The notes beneath the pieces were generated by a model that was not told where the DNA came from, made no database searches, and saw nothing but the letters and a program-made list of their open reading frames with translations. From Pseudobdellovibrionaceae bacterium (GTDB taxonomy: Bacteria > Bdellovibrionota > Bdellovibrionia > Bdellovibrionales > UBA1609), in the NCBI GenBank assembly GCA_023898385.1, contig CP060220.1, forward strand, positions 1,676,993 through 1,740,992: a DNA stretch of 64,000 nucleotides, in the 5' to 3' direction. Shown piece after piece: positions 6,378-57,076 of the stretch (its first letter is position 1; each line of letters starts with the position of its first letter). The translations under genes and the position numbers were made by a program.

Positions 6378-6384
6378 CCGATAC
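6378..6384 (+). promoter_or_regulatory. sigma-28 (FliA)-type -10-like element CCGATAC
   Basis: TAAG lies 16 nt upstream (3/4 match to TAAA). The PilZ ATG at 6391 is only 6 nt downstream, so the transcript would be leaderless or nearly so. Confidence 0.35.
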
Positions 6385-27174: not shown

Positions 27175-27244
27175 GCTTTGGTACCAGGTCCTGAACATGG
27201 TACCAAAGCATGATGCCCTGTGACCAGGTTCAGGACCTGGTACC
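27175..27244. repeat. nested, mutually exclusive inverted repeats (17-bp and 11-bp stems)
   Basis: GGTACCAGGTCCTGAAC (27180-27196) pairs with GTTCAGGACCTGGTACC (27228-27244). GCTTTGGTACC (27175-27185) pairs with GGTACCAAAGC (27199-27209). The two stems share GGTACC. The structure starts 3 nt after the GGDEF stop. Confidence 0.7.
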
Positions 27245-27247
27245 CAA

Positions 27248-52351: not shown

Positions 52352-55114
52352 TCAGTCTGCCGAAGTCGACGCACTACTGCCAGACTTTTCTCCAGCCCGA
52401 CGCCTGATAACTGTAGAACTTTTTGCCGCCTTTTTCTTACCCGGCGCCTTACTCGAGGCCTTTTTTCCAGCCACTTTTTTATTTGCCTTCTTTGCCGCCA
52501 CTTTCTTTTTAGCAGGACCCGATTTTTTCTTAGCTGCCTTTTTCTGTGGCTTCTTCTTGGTCACCTTCGATGCCAACAATTCAATTGCCTGCTCTTTAGT
52601 CACATCTTCAGGCTTAATATCTTCTGGCAAGCTGGCATTTACTTTTCCACATTTGATATACGGACCATACTTGCCCGTGAGTACTTGAATTTCATCTCCC
52701 GAATCCGGATGCGCACCCAGCTCTTTTATGGGCGCCGCTCGTCCACGAACTTTTTTCGGCTGCATGAGCAACTCAATAGCTCGCTCCAAATCCACTTCAA
52801 ATAAGTCGTCCGATTTTGGAATCGAACGGTAATCGCCATCACACACTACGTAGGGGCCAAAACGCCCGAGTCCTTTCTTAATGACTTTTCCAGTTTCTGG
52901 ATGCTCACCCAAAGTTTTAGGCAACTCAAGAAGGCTCAAGGCCTGACCAATAGTTACTGTTTCCGGGTCCATTTGAGGTGGCACTGCAATTCGTTTTGGT
53001 TTTGACTCGGCTCCATCGCCTTCTGCTTCACCCAGCTGCACATAAGGACCATAGCGACCACTCAATACATACACCGGCAAACCGGTTTCTGGGTCTTTCC
53101 CCAGAGCATCGGCTCCATTGATTTTTTGATCAATCAGCTTATTTGCCGATTCCTCTGTCATATCGCCCGGAAAATAATTATCGGGAAGAGAAGCACATAT
53201 CTCTTCTCCCTTTTGTTTTCGGCAAACATAGGCGCCATATCGACCAATTCGAAAGCTTAAACCCTTTAGACCAGGTAGCTCAATATTTCTCGATGTTTCG
53301 TCACTAATCACCGACTCTTGCTTTTCAACTTTTGTTTTTAAACCCGAGTCGCCAAAATATACCGATTTTAAATACTTTTTGTACTCAAGATCACCTTGGG
53401 CGATGTCGTCCAAACGTCGTTCCATATCTGAGGTAAAATCAAGGGCTACGTAATCCGGCAAACTCTCACTCAGTAACTTTGTCACTACCATAGCGGTGAA
53501 CGTGGGCACCAAAGCGTTGCCCACTTTCTTAACATACCCACGATCTTGAATGGTGCTAATAATTACGGCGTATGTTGACGGACGACCAATGCCTTCTTTT
53601 TCCATAAACTGAACCAAAGACGCTTCAGTAAATCGTGCTGGCGGTTTAGTTTCGTGAGGCAAACACTTTAGATCTTTGCATTGAACGACTTCGCCTTTTT
53701 TGAGCTGAGGCAACCGAATTTCACGATCATCCAATGCCGCCTCTGGATCATCTTTACCTTCAACATAAGCCTTTAAAAAACCCGGAAATTCTATAGTCAT
53801 CCCTGATGCACCAAACTCAGCATCGCCCACCCTTATGCGAACGCTCATTTGTTTGTGTTCCGAATTGACCATCTGAGAAGCCACGGTTCGCTTCCAAATT
53901 AAATCGTAAACCTTTAGTTGTTCACCCAACAACCCTGAATCCTCTGGGCGTACAAACTCCGTGCCTGCAGGACGAATGGCTTCGTGCGCCTCTTGCGCGC
54001 CTTTGACCTTTTTCTTGGTGTACGTCCGCGCCTCTGGGGGCAAATAGTTTTTGCCGTACAAACTCGTAATGCAATCGCGGGCCGCTTTAATCGCCTGGTC
54101 AGAAAGTGCGGTGGAATCTGTTCTCATGTAAGTGATAATACCGCGCTCGTAAAGCTTCTGCGCCACTTGCATGGTTTGCTTGGAGCTCATCCCCAATTTT
54201 CTGTTGGCCTCTTGTTGCAATGTGGATGTGATAAAAGGCGGTGCCGGCTTTCGCGATACAGGTCGCTCCTCGACAGAGGAAACCTTCCACTCTTTTTTAT
54301 CAATGCTTTTATAGATTTCTTTGGCATCTGCCTCTTCAAGGTGAAGAACAGTGTCTTTGCGGTCGGCCAGTAGCTTACCCGTTTCGCTGTCAAAATCCTT
54401 GCCAGTTGCAATGCGCTTTTCCTTATAGCTAACAATCTTTGCATCAAACCCCACGGAACTTTTACTCAAAGCACCCACAAGATCCCAATACTCAGCTTTG
54501 TTAAAACGCAATCTCTCTTGCTCTCGTTCAGCAATCAGGCGCACCGCCACTGATTGAACTCGTCCAGCAGAAAGACCGTAGGCCACTTTTTTCCACAACA
54601 AAGGAGAAATTGTATACCCCACCAGACGATCCAGAATTCGGCGGGCTTCTTGCGCTCGGACCAAATCAAGATCCACTTCTCGCACATGTTTAACCGCGTC
54701 CTCGATGGCTTCTTTTGTGATCTCATGAAACACCATGCGCTTCACAGGAACCTTGGGCTTTAACACCTCAACTAAATGCCAACTGATACTCTCCCCTTCG
54801 CGGTCTTCGTCCGTTGCCAGAATCAGCTCGTCGGCATCTTTGAGTTTGTCTTTGAGATCTTTGACAATGCGTACTTTAGTTTTAGGAATACAATATACGG
54901 GCTCAAAACCCTCTTCCACATTCACGCCCAAGTTGGCCCAAGGTTGCTTTTTAAATTTCTCAGGAATATCTTTTGCCGATTGCGGCAAATCGCGAATATG
55001 ACCCATACAGGACTCAACAATGAAGCCTTTGCCTAAAAATTTGCGGATTGTGCGGGCCTTTGTCGGTGACTCCACGATAACGAGCTTGGTTCCACCGCTG
55101 GTATTTTTTGCCAT
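52352..55114 (-). CDS. topA: DNA topoisomerase I with a Lys-rich C-terminal tail
   Basis: KLVIVESPTKARTI (Toprim), ITYMRTDS (catalytic Tyr region), and repeated C-terminal GRYGPY-type zinc-ribbon-like modules. The tail is KKKPQKKAAKKKSGPAKKKVAAKK.... Start at MAKNTSGG (55114). Confidence 0.92.
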   Translation of the reverse strand: MAKNTSGGTKLVIVESPTKARTIRKFLGKGFIVESCMGHIRDLPQSAKDIPEKFKKQPWANLGVNVEEGFEPVYCIPKTKVRIVKDLKDKLKDADELILATDEDREGESISWHLVEVLKPKVPVKRMVFHEITKEAIEDAVKHVREVDLDLVRAQEARRILDRLVGYTISPLLWKKVAYGLSAGRVQSVAVRLIAEREQERLRFNKAEYWDLVGALSKSSVGFDAKIVSYKEKRIATGKDFDSETGKLLADRKDTVLHLEEADAKEIYKSIDKKEWKVSSVEERPVSRKPAPPFITSTLQQEANRKLGMSSKQTMQVAQKLYERGIITYMRTDSTALSDQAIKAARDCITSLYGKNYLPPEARTYTKKKVKGAQEAHEAIRPAGTEFVRPEDSGLLGEQLKVYDLIWKRTVASQMVNSEHKQMSVRIRVGDAEFGASGMTIEFPGFLKAYVEGKDDPEAALDDREIRLPQLKKGEVVQCKDLKCLPHETKPPARFTEASLVQFMEKEGIGRPSTYAVIISTIQDRGYVKKVGNALVPTFTAMVVTKLLSESLPDYVALDFTSDMERRLDDIAQGDLEYKKYLKSVYFGDSGLKTKVEKQESVISDETSRNIELPGLKGLSFRIGRYGAYVCRKQKGEEICASLPDNYFPGDMTEESANKLIDQKINGADALGKDPETGLPVYVLSGRYGPYVQLGEAEGDGAESKPKRIAVPPQMDPETVTIGQALSLLELPKTLGEHPETGKVIKKGLGRFGPYVVCDGDYRSIPKSDDLFEVDLERAIELLMQPKKVRGRAAPIKELGAHPDSGDEIQVLTGKYGPYIKCGKVNASLPEDIKPEDVTKEQAIELLASKVTKKKPQKKAAKKKSGPAKKKVAAKKANKKVAGKKASSKAPGKKKAAKSSTVIRRRAGEKSGSSASTSAD

Positions 55115-55195
55115 ATTGTTATTCCATTCCTGTATTTGACTCGACGCCTCTATTACCACTATGGGCTTCACTGTAGTTTATGATAGAAACAAGGC

Positions 55196-55966
55196 ATGAA
55201 GCCAATCACAAATTTCAAAAACCCTGGAATCAAAGTACTTTTTACTGATATCGACGACACGCTCACACACCAAGGTCGATTGCAAGCTGAGGCCTATGAT
55301 GCCCTTTGGCAATTGCATAATGCGAACATTGCGGTGGTGCCGGTAACGGGTCGACCAGCGGGTTGGTGCGAACTCATTGCCCGCCAGTGGCCCGTAGCGG
55401 GCGTCATTGGCGAAAACGGTGGATTGTATTTCCGGTATCACGAAAAAAAGATGCACAGGCATTATGCATTTCCGGCCACCACACGTAAGGATCATCGAAG
55501 TCGCCTCGAACTCGTAAAGGCGGAAGTTTTGCAACAGGTGCCAGGTGCGGCATTGGCCTCTGATCAGTTTTGTCGCGAAATGGATTTAGCCATCGATTAC
55601 TGTGAAGATGTTGCCCCACTTGACAAAGGCCAGGTGCAAAAAATCGTAGATATCTTTACGAAACATGGAGCCACGGTGAAAGTCAGCTCTATCCACGTCA
55701 ACGGGTGGTTCGGCGACTATGACAAGCTCACCATGTGTAAGGCATTTGCCGAAACCGAACTGCAGATCCGTTTAGATACGCAAGGGTCAATCTGCGCTTT
55801 CGTGGGGGACTCCCCCAATGACGAGCCTTTGTTTGAGTATTTCGAAAACTCCTTTGCCGTAGCGAATGTGAATCGATTTGTGGACGACATGAGTCACTTA
55901 CCCAAATACGTGGCCAAAAAAGAAGGCGGCCTCGGGTTCGCAGAAATTGCCAAGCGAATGTATTAA
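55196..55966 (+). CDS. HAD-IIB family sugar-phosphate phosphatase
   Basis: LFTDIDDTLT (DxD nucleophile), VPVTGRP and GDSPNDEPLF motifs. Confidence 0.8.
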   Translation: MKPITNFKNPGIKVLFTDIDDTLTHQGRLQAEAYDALWQLHNANIAVVPVTGRPAGWCELIARQWPVAGVIGENGGLYFRYHEKKMHRHYAFPATTRKDHRSRLELVKAEVLQQVPGAALASDQFCREMDLAIDYCEDVAPLDKGQVQKIVDIFTKHGATVKVSSIHVNGWFGDYDKLTMCKAFAETELQIRLDTQGSICAFVGDSPNDEPLFEYFENSFAVANVNRFVDDMSHLPKYVAKKEGGLGFAEIAKRMY

Positions 55967-55973
55967 ACATCGG

Positions 55974-56071
55974 CATCCCCAAAAGGTATCGGATTACTTT
56001 TGGTAGCAATAGTGCGTCACCAGAGTGACGCGCCATTGCTACCAAAAGTAATCCGATACCTTTTGGGGATG
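55974..56071. repeat. 98-bp near-perfect palindrome (about 47-bp arms, 4-nt centre)
   Basis: The left arm is CATCCCCAAAAGGTATCGGATTACTTTTGGTAGCAATAGTGCGTCAC, followed by CAGA, then the reverse complement with only two differences. It begins 8 nt after the HAD stop. Confidence 0.9.
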
Positions 56072-56212
56072 TCTTTTCCGGAAAACCATTAACGTAAACT
56101 CTTGCCCTGATATGGCCTTGGACAGAACGAGCCTTTATCACTTTGGTTGACGCAGTGTCGCCACTAAAGGAAGCAGGTACCTATTGCGAACAACACCGGG
56201 TAGCGTTTTTAC

Positions 56213-57076
56213 ATGACCCCTAACGTTCGCACCTATCAGGACTACCGACAGTTTTTGAAGGATTTTGCTGAATATAAGCGCCGGCAGAATTCCCATTGGA
56301 GCTATGGGACCTGGGCCCACTCCTTGGGACTTAAGGCCACCACATCTATATCCATGATCATCAATGGACAGCGGCATCCTGGCGAACAGATCCTTCACTC
56401 TCTGGTTGAATACTTTGGTTTTAGTCCCAATGAGGAGTCTCACTTTCGAAACTTGGTGGCGCTGGCGAAATCCAATGAAACCCATCTAAAAAATATTCTT
56501 AAAAAAGAAGTGCATACATCAAGCCTTAAACAACCTCGTCCACCCATTTCTCGTCATTTGTTTTCACAAATTTTTGAATGGCATTTTATGGCTTTACGGC
56601 AATTGGCCCGTATGGGACGCCTCACTACCAACAGTCAAATCACAAAACGCCAACTTCTCCATCGACTTTCAGAAAAAACCATTCAAATGGCCACAGAAAA
56701 ACTCATCCACCTCAGATTACTTGAACTCGACAGTGAACAAAAACTGGTGGCACCGGCCTCACCCCTGTCTACACAGCAAGACATACCAGATGAGAACATT
56801 CGAGCATTTCATCAACAGATGATTTCCCTGGCCGCGCAGTCTGTCCAACGTGTTTCCGTAAAAGAAAGAGAGATCGTTGGACTCACCATTCCGATCTCTC
56901 GCGCTAAATTGAGACAAGCTAAAGAACTCATTCGAAAATTTGCCTCCGAATTTGACGCGCTAATGGACGACACCCAGGGCGATGCCGTTTATCAATTAAA
57001 TGTGCAGTTTTTTCCGTTAGCCGAAGGCGTCATCAATGATCACGACAAGGAACCATCTAATGAAAAGAATCACTAG
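56213..57076 (+). CDS. TIGR02147/DUF4423 family protein (putative HTH regulator; paralogous family known from Bdellovibrio and Fibrobacter)
   Basis: YQDYRQFLKDFAEYKRRQNSHWSYGTWAHSLGLKATTSISMIINGQR matches the family N-terminus as I remember it. Confidence 0.6.
   Translation: MTPNVRTYQDYRQFLKDFAEYKRRQNSHWSYGTWAHSLGLKATTSISMIINGQRHPGEQILHSLVEYFGFSPNEESHFRNLVALAKSNETHLKNILKKEVHTSSLKQPRPPISRHLFSQIFEWHFMALRQLARMGRLTTNSQITKRQLLHRLSEKTIQMATEKLIHLRLLELDSEQKLVAPASPLSTQQDIPDENIRAFHQQMISLAAQSVQRVSVKEREIVGLTIPISRAKLRQAKELIRKFASEFDALMDDTQGDAVYQLNVQFFPLAEGVINDHDKEPSNEKNH

Follow-up and report, generated by a model that had tools for sequence, protein, structure and literature searches.

In the genome of a Pseudobdellovibrionaceae bacterium (order Bdellovibrionales; assembly GCA_023898385.1) we analysed a stretch of 64,000 nucleotides, positions 1,676,993 to 1,740,992 of contig CP060220.1, which we refer to as the window and whose own numbering we use unless genome coordinates are named. 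Here a gene for a HAD-IIB family hydrolase is followed by a gene for a TIGR02147/DUF4423 family protein, and between them, close behind the first stop codon, lies a 98-bp near-perfect palindrome, the subject of this paper. Our analysis places the palindrome in one of four systems of this genome in which repetitive extragenic palindromic (REP) sequences accompany a REP-associated tyrosine transposase (RAYT). We consider it highly probable that the palindrome is an element of the type known as REP doublets forming hairpins (REPINs), that it belongs to a dispersed non-coding family, here called REP1, and that its cognate enzyme is a RAYT, R1, which would act on REP1 hairpins and move the doublets.

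The palindrome and its surroundings

A repeat search of the window places the two arms, each 47 nt long, at 55974-56020 and 56025-56071; they are 96% complementary and 4 nt apart, and window 55974-56071 reads CATCCCCAAAAGGTATCGGATTACTTTTGGTAGCAATAGTGCGTCAC-CAGA-GTGACGCGCCATTGCTACCAAAAGTAATCCGATACCTTTTGGGGATG. A first-pass annotation, made from the letters alone, had described this structure behind the HAD gene, with two differences between the arms, one U-G and one A-C. Both structure and differences hold up: T56013 lies opposite G56032 (U·G in plus-strand RNA) and A56011 opposite C56034 (A·C). The predicted fold of the palindrome as RNA has an energy of -88.1 kcal/mol (z = -17.9), which none of 200 shuffles equals; the RNA of the minus strand folds with -86 kcal/mol, and single-stranded DNA with -53.4 kcal/mol (z = -21).

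Each arm contains a REP1 unit of about 42 nt, made up of a small hairpin CCAAAAG…CTTTTGG, an invariant GGTAGC tag and a tail ending in GCGTCAC, and two such units are joined tail to tail (Table 1). The full conserved left arm reaches 56020 (…AATAGTGCGTCAC). As single-stranded DNA the small hairpin of a single arm is weak (-6.5 and -4.8 kcal/mol). In the central hairpin, which holds both the A·C mismatch and the T·G pair, either strand reads 5'-GTAG and then a stem-loop, an order like that of canonical REPs (Table 1 of PMC2817692).

Table 1. Features at the palindrome (window coordinates) and related features elsewhere in the genome (genome coordinates)
Feature	Position	Strand	Remark
Whole 98-bp palindrome, REP1 inverted doublet (REPIN-type)	window 55974..56071	.	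one of 10 doublets in the genome
Left REP1 unit CCAAAAGGTATCGGATTACTTTTGGTAGC: small hairpin (7-bp stem), then invariant GGTAGC tag	window 55979..56007	+	0 mismatches to family unit
Right REP1 unit, reverse complement of left	window 56038..56066	-	full arm begins at 56025
Central hairpin GGTAGC-AATAGTGCGTCAC-CAGA-GTGACGCGCCATT-GCTACC	window 56002..56043	.	single-stranded DNA fold -17.5 kcal/mol, z = -9.3
Loop CAGA, 4 nt	window 56021..56024	.	differs between copies: CAGA, CAAA, TTGA, TTAA
CATCC, pairs with GGATG at 56067-56071	window 55974..55978	.	5-bp extension outside the 88-bp conserved core
HAD-IIB family hydrolase gene, upstream	window 55196..55966	+	stop codon ends 7 nt before the palindrome
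TIGR02147/DUF4423 family protein gene, downstream, co-directional	window 56213..57076	+	begins 141 nt after the palindrome
REP2 singlet TGTCGCCACTAAAGGAAGCAGGTAC, 1 mismatch	window 56156..56180	-	85 bp downstream of the palindrome, same intergenic region
RAYT gene R2	genome 1974117-1974743	+	flanking inverted repeat GTACCTGCTTCCTTTTGTGGCGACA (REP2)
RAYT gene R3	genome 20670-21278	-	flanking inverted repeat TTGGGTTCCAGGTCCTAAACCTGATCACACAGCGTC (REP3)
RAYT gene R4	genome 3055824-3056426	-	flanking inverted repeat GCAACGCAAAAAGGAAAGGGATACCTTTTCA (REP4)
REP2-armed foldbacks, examples	genome 146477-146718, 1546239-1546466, 3214520-3214749		
REP3-armed foldbacks, examples	genome 872917-873141, 2168724-2168944		

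The gap of 246 nt between the two genes contains the REP1 doublet and a REP2 singlet. The CTTTT and the second small palindrome that had been noted behind the stem are both present, the latter being TTTTCCGGAAAA at 56074-56085; some 16 perfect palindromes of 12 nt are expected by chance per 64 kb, and this one shows no sign of belonging to the element. An intrinsic terminator was considered and rejected, as there is no terminator-like site on either strand of 55850-56300, the stem being followed only by TCTTTTCC on the plus strand and by no T run on the minus strand. The suggestion that the structure might be simply a conserved terminator without other copies is contradicted both by the missing U-tract and by the many copies described below. 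Around the palindrome there is no sigma-70-like promoter motif on either strand. An Rfam search of 55000-57000 (E <= 10) gave only sub-threshold matches of the kind that any long hairpin gives, to OxyS and to eukaryotic miRNA precursor models, the best of the latter with 36.5 bits against a gathering score of 95. As for the octamer CCGATACC, which had been linked to sigma-28-like sites elsewhere in the window, it does occur in both arms, but the link finds no support: the sites at 6378, 11125 and 45507 have no REP1 context and the count of the octamer is barely above chance.

Four explanations had been offered for the palindrome. The one that stands is that of a foldback miniature inverted-repeat transposable element (MITE) or REP-like element, which can now be specified as an inverted doublet of a REP unit that flanks a RAYT gene; a cruciform-forming protein binding site and a single-strand origin find no support, and the hairpin acting in RNA is weighed below.

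A dispersed family of inverted doublets

Comparing the palindrome with its own genome (3,330,855 bp in a single contig, 46% G+C) proved to be the decisive check, which the first-pass annotation had proposed for one arm. The comparison yields 59 matches, which merge into 10 full-length copies and a number of partial ones. All full copies have in common an 88-bp core of the form CCAAAAGGTATCGGATT[A/C]C[T/C]TTTGGTAGCAAT..GTGCGTCAC, followed by the loop and the complement. When the genome is scanned exhaustively by Hamming distance for the 29-nt unit CCAAAAGGTATCGGATTACTTTTGGTAGC, allowing at most 5 mismatches, 33 REP1 units are found, compared with none for ten shuffled control patterns. Twenty of the 33 make up 10 inverted doublets, in which the GTAGC ends always face inward. 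A count of all 16-mers of the genome puts the REP1 16-mer, with 33 copies, in one of the four most abundant repeat families. That no second copy is found in the window, as had been remarked, is correct, because the other copies sit outside it.

The GGTAGC tag is invariant in all nine aligned doublets, and 95.5% of the cells of this alignment form standard pairs, against 35-41% when the partners are slid by 1-3 columns. A 'CCC' subfamily of three copies has two core pairs in which both sides have changed, one from A-T and one from T-A, each to C-G; G·U is tolerated at one pair, and alignment columns 53/76, mismatched in five of the nine copies, form a mismatch hot spot within the central hairpin. 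Moreover, the arm differences of the window copy (AATAGTG in one arm, AATGGCG in the other) reappear in flipped orientation in copies 173704 and 158798, which means that the doublet was copied whole rather than put together twice. Units in doublets carry on average 0.85 mismatches per 29 nt and isolated singlets 3.5, the latter value coming from only four singlets.

Outside the core, five of the 10 doublets are extended by complementary flanks of 5-12 bp that are specific to each copy (P for at least 5 bp is 0.001 at random sites); in the window copy this is the CATCC/GGATG pair, and in three of the five the extension repeats part of the REP head (…AAAGGTATCNN). Such flanks could have arisen by insertion into small palindromes already present at the site, by iteration of the head motif or by copying of the adjacent DNA. 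At genome 1793709-1793774 there are three tandem 18-nt REP1 heads (CCCAAAAGGT[C/A]TCGGATT) followed by CCCTTTGGGAAT, which shows that the head can be iterated alone. A separate cluster at genome 1144080-1144568 has four REP1 units, as many forward as reverse, and every one of them is joined to a repeated segment of about 105-135 nt; no RAYT match and no RAYT-like open reading frame (ORF) lies between these units, and the cluster may be a REPIN cluster or a RAYT locus of the kind called REPtron that has lost its gene.

One could ask whether the doublets are instead inverted binding sites for a sequence-specific DNA-binding protein, for instance a regulator or a nucleoid-associated protein, with CCAAAAGGTATCGG as its target. 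No copy departs from the head motif, which also forms the tandem 18-mers just mentioned, and a related AAAGGTNCC head recurs in RAYT-flanking repeats across the order. However, no regulator is linked to the copies, which lie at the 3' ends of genes and not at promoters, the whole 88 bp is conserved including tag and tail, and a recurrent head is more simply a recognition end for the transposase. We find binding sites of this sort scarcely credible as an explanation of the family.

The placement of the doublets was judged with stop-to-stop ORFs of at least 110 aa, which serve as a proxy for genes and are not a curated annotation. All 10 doublets lie between such long ORFs and are in this sense extragenic. 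Eight of them lie 0-14 nt beyond the end of the stop codon of a long ORF, several being between convergent ORFs, and the other two lie in 5' or divergent intergenic regions; REPs are usually placed downstream of ORFs (PMC3733652). A 605-codon ORF at genome 943483-945300 (minus strand) is found between two REP1 doublets, one at 943392-943479, which is 3 nt past its stop codon, and one at 945174-945261 in its 5' region. Cumulative GC skew suggests an origin at about 2.55 Mb and a terminus at about 0.82 Mb. None of the 10 doublets is closer than 0.73 Mb to this origin, but the numbers are small and the observation was made post hoc.

How much of this could be explained if the structure itself, rather than its propagation, were what matters? 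In such a scheme the host would select the copies as RNA or DNA structures, be it as 3' stabilisers of mRNA, RNase III sites or bidirectional barriers, and their repetition would be secondary. The position of eight doublets just past stop codons, some of them between convergent genes, would suit this proposal, as would a stem that is extremely stable as RNA on both strands and tolerates G·U at one pair; REPs are known to influence both the stability of mRNAs and termination (background of PMC3733652 and PMC3479197). On the other hand there is no U-tract or terminator-like site, two copies are found in 5' or divergent intergenic regions, five of nine copies have a mismatch at one stem position, none of the 40 relatives searched has the family, and the same arms bracket a transposase gene. 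We judge host selection quite improbable as the origin of the family, while it is compatible with the REPIN reading as a side effect. As a side effect of its place 7 nt behind the stop codon, a role of the palindrome as a 3' structure of the HAD mRNA is plausible: a likely secondary outcome is that the 47-bp stem at the 3' end of this mRNA would block 3'-5' exonucleases, be cut by double-strand-specific RNases or lessen read-through into the TIGR02147 gene.

A candidate enzyme and related systems

An ORF at genome 1588073-1588771 (minus strand) lies amid a cluster of five REP1 units that covers 1587525-1589091. From its first ATG this ORF encodes R1, a protein of 211 aa (genome 1588076-1588708), with units at 1587525 and 1587625 (plus) to its left and at 1588940, 1589022 and 1589063 (minus) to its right; the innermost unit on the left and the outermost one on the right are parts of longer, 44-nt arms, inverted to each other and 95% identical. 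R1 matches the Pfam family Y1_Tnp with 27.6 bits (gathering score 23) and the NCBIfam model NF047646, REP_Tyr_transpos, with 61.5 bits (E = 7.9e-17) over model positions 2-146 of 146. In the PDB its only significant match is 4er8, the TnpA-REP of E. coli (E = 7e-6), to which its HUH motif (NHFHL) and catalytic tyrosine (YKYVYRNPV) align at H59/H61 and Y115, residues whose roles in TnpA-REP have been described (PMC3479197). A RAYT gene between inverted REPs is the definition of a REPtron (PMC2817692; PMC3733652). Since the same arms, inverted, stand on either side of the R1 gene, R1 is most likely the cognate enzyme of REP1, and we infer that it acts on these repeats. The 29-nt unit was also considered as a clustered regularly interspaced short palindromic repeat (CRISPR), a reading we reject: there is no regular repeat-spacer array, and the clusters are inverted sets around a transposase gene.

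By analogy with TnpA-REP and IS200/IS605, the RAYT would bind the folded REP hairpin and the GTAG-type tag on single-stranded DNA, for example at a replication fork, and would then cut and rejoin the strand, and whole doublets would be excised or copied into new intergenic sites. We likewise infer this reaction chemistry on REP1 and the mobility of the family, present or past.

R1 is not alone. Three further RAYT paralogues, R2 to R4 (Table 1), are 38-49% identical to R1, and there are no near-identical duplicates. All four keep the catalytic motifs, and they have in common a C-terminal extension of about 70 aa (…DDTLF…L.WLNQ.P……AL.R..FK…) that goes beyond both the 146-position NCBIfam model and the 165-residue TnpA-REP chain of 4er8. 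The RAYT model NF047646 is the best or only NCBIfam match for the four, with 47-71 bits where the curated equivalog cut-off is 80. Against the IS200 model R2 scores 20.5 bits, while there is no match for R1 at E <= 0.01 or for R3 and R4 at E <= 0.001. The repeats flanking R2, R3 and R4 are themselves dispersed, with 29 units of REP2, 17 of REP3 and 45 of REP4, where shuffled controls give 0 or 1, and each forms inverted doublets. Repeat-specific REPtrons have been reported where several REP families coexist, as in P. fluorescens, S. maltophilia and others (PMC3733652). The window itself has, at 27212-27247 on the minus strand, a diverged unit of the 36-nt repeat REP3, with 6 mismatches of 36.

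Similar arrangements are found elsewhere in the order. In other Bdellovibrionales genomes 13 of 15 RAYT homologues are bracketed by inverted repeats of their own (14-73 nt), many of which begin with a head of the type AAAGGT(N)CC. In one genome from another family of the order (G040) the RAYT is 50% identical to R1 and its flanking repeat, AAAAGGTTCCAGGTTCTTTTTGGTAAATATTCCGCGTCAA, has the layout of the REP1 arm: a hairpin, GGTA(A/G), a spacer and GCGTCA. This repeat occurs in 36 copies, compared with none for a control pattern, including tight inverted doublets and a pair around the RAYT gene. These observations suggest that RAYT and repeat have been associated over a long period.

The genome also contains long foldbacks, which are in part linked to the RAYT systems. 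The two most abundant unassigned 16-mer families (47-49 and 38-40 copies), X and Y, jointly form the conserved apex, about 77 nt long, of foldbacks of 176-253 bp with folding energies of about -190 to -220 kcal/mol; the X/Y core is an imperfect hairpin, and the boundaries of the foldbacks were set by folding. About 14 of the 47 apex copies have outermost arms of REP2 or REP3 type, and the remainder (176-200 bp) have fully copy-specific arms. The REP-armed foldbacks (210-253 bp) are built in three layers: REP2 or REP3 arms on the outside, then a GC-rich stem that is perfectly paired and differs from copy to copy, and the conserved apex. Foldbacks and REP1 doublets are alike in their apices, which read ATTGCGTCAC-TTTG-GTGCCGCAA in the former and GGTGCGTCAC-TTTG-GTGACGCACC in the latter. 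The link is partial and does not amount to an explanation of the foldbacks.

Could REP1 doublets and X/Y foldbacks nevertheless be products of one propagation mechanism, belonging to a divergent, C-terminally extended clade of RAYTs? The similar apices, the REP2 or REP3 ends on roughly a third of the foldbacks, the copy-specific flanks of REP1 and the copy-specific stems of the foldbacks are the reasons for raising this idea, in which a single arm would be integrated and the second arm would arise by snap-back synthesis templated on the first arm and the adjacent host DNA. We hold such a common mechanism to be rather unlikely. A related proposal does without a direct part for the RAYT and lets hairpin-templated, or snap-back, synthesis alone copy one arm with some host flank into the other; the longer foldback families would be made likewise. 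The complementary copy-specific flanks of five doublets, the perfectly paired copy-specific stems of the X/Y foldbacks, and the likeness between the REP1 apex TGCGTCAC-TTTG-GTG and the X/Y apex speak for it. However, in three of the five doublets the long extension repeats part of the REP head (AAAGGTATC…) and is thus no arbitrary piece of host DNA, and all copies have identical arms, which also occur singly on both sides of the RAYT gene. Snap-back synthesis of this kind seems to us very improbable.

Comparison with known systems and significance

REPINs, as described by Bertels and Rainey (2011, PMC3116915), are REP doublets of inverted orientation that fold into hairpins. They are conserved better than singlets, changes in one arm are compensated in the other, and they flank RAYT genes. 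In REP1 we find the corresponding features: inverted units with a short spacer, a hairpin fold, dispersed extragenic copies, covariation of the arms, and REPs flanking a RAYT, which has the Y1_Tnp match with HUH and tyrosine motifs and is single-copy between inverted REPs. As in the REPINs of P. fluorescens SBW25 (PMC3116915), the hairpin is long, singlets are less well conserved than doublets, a single-copy RAYT has the same units beside it, and several RAYT/REP families coexist in one genome. REP1 differs from the SBW25 elements in being almost without spacer (a 4-nt loop) and in its composite arm of small hairpin, GGTAGC tag and GCGTCAC tail; moreover the RAYT here is divergent, with its C-terminal extension, and the host belongs to the Bdellovibrionales.

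The likeness to the REPs and bacterial interspersed mosaic elements of E. coli and their TnpA-REP (4er8; Messing 2012, PMC3479197) lies in the Y1/HUH transposase with its conserved HUH and tyrosine residues and in an invariant GTAG tetranucleotide beside a hairpin. R1 is only about 25-30% identical to TnpA-REP, however, and H123 of the metal site is aligned to an alanine; the REP1 stem is AT-rich (CCAAAAG) where that of E. coli is GC-rich. Like the REPtrons of Nunvar (2010, PMC2817692), the R1 locus has several inverted REP units flanking the gene, with two variants that alternate in the manner of y and z REPs. The GTAG/CGTC palindromic repeats surveyed by Di Nocera (2013, PMC3733652) also occur predominantly as head-to-head dimers downstream of ORFs, families of 20-100 units are common among them, and there too REPtrons are repeat-specific when several families coexist. 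REP1 departs from these repeats in that one arm has both the GTAG tag and, 13 nt further in, CGTC (as GCGTCAC). REP3, compared by its CGTC end alone, ends in CGTC and flanks a RAYT, whereas no transposase accompanies the CGTC repeats in PMC3733652.

A different class of small repeats should be considered as well, since REP1 doublets resemble MITEs in being small, non-coding, hairpin-forming and intergenic, and MITEs can affect neighbouring transcripts. Bacterial MITEs such as Correia, ERIC and RUP have terminal inverted repeats that match insertion sequences of the DDE type and are bordered by target-site duplications. The MITE reading was rejected: there is no direct duplication in the 50-nt flanks of all 10 copies, the flanks being unrelated or inverted-complementary, and the enzyme is of the Y1/HUH kind.

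We now turn to other assemblies. The exact HAD protein is encoded on contigs of ten other public assemblies, all of them 100% identical to the window over the shared length, and we therefore take them to represent the same clone in different samples. In three of these contigs (one metagenome-assembled genome from NCBI and two ENA metagenomes) the 246-nt gap is complete and its palindrome unaltered, and the other seven, from short reads, end inside the palindrome, 13-92 nt after the HAD stop codon. A metagenome-wide scan for the REP1 unit returned a single contig, which matches the locus of copy 158798. That the palindrome might be an assembly or chimeric artefact, a possibility flagged in the first-pass annotation, could be suspected from the seven truncated contigs, which show that the palindrome is hard to assemble. 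Yet three independent assemblies are identical across the locus, ten loci share the design in a closed genome of a single contig, and a separate metagenome contig carries another copy; the chance of an artefact is practically negligible.

Several points speak against the reading of REP1 as a mobile REPIN family with R1 as its enzyme, and we set them together here. No presence/absence variation was found among the ten public contigs, all 100% identical, and no movement was observed. The element is absent from the 40 relatives searched, all from other genera, in which only the HAD coding part matches, at about 70% identity; no empty site was found among them, and the TIGR02147 gene was not found in the flanks of about 1.5 kb that were searched. 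REP1 has only 10 doublets, where Pseudomonas has hundreds, with about a hundred or more per family in SBW25. The scores of all four RAYTs stay below the equivalog cut-off, which leads us to regard them as a divergent RAYT clade, with its C-terminal extension of about 70 aa. The copy-specific complementary flanks in half of the copies are not predicted by the standard REPIN model. Finally, the GTAG of E. coli sits 5' of the foot of the REP hairpin (PMC3479197; Table 1 of PMC2817692), whereas the GGTAGC of REP1 follows the small CCAAAAG/CTTTTGG hairpin on its 3' side. The only hairpin that has the tag on its 5' side is the central one with its 13-bp stem, GGTAGC-AATGGTGCGTCAC-loop-…-GCTACC, which exists only in the doublet.

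What, then, does the finding mean? Well-studied REPIN-RAYT systems are those of Pseudomonas and Enterobacteria. We found no paper in the literature searched that links REP, RAYT or REPIN elements to Bdellovibrio; while REPINs as a kind are well known, the REP1 family, its arm layout and its host lineage are undescribed as far as this literature goes. The puzzle of a giant terminator gives way to an annotation in which a REPIN-type repeat is paired with its probable cognate RAYT, and the 3.3-Mb genome has four pairs of this sort. In practical terms, palindromes of this sort break short-read assemblies of the organism, as seven of the ten public contigs stop inside this one. Copies that lie within a few nucleotides of stop codons could alter the fate of the mRNA, and the partial link to the RAYT systems may help to explain the long foldbacks of the genome. 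If the common mechanism outlined above were true, the lineage would expose how REPINs are copied, a question that papers on REPINs and RAYTs call still unclear. More generally, an arm layout common to two families of the order offers a handle on the co-evolution of RAYTs and their repeats.

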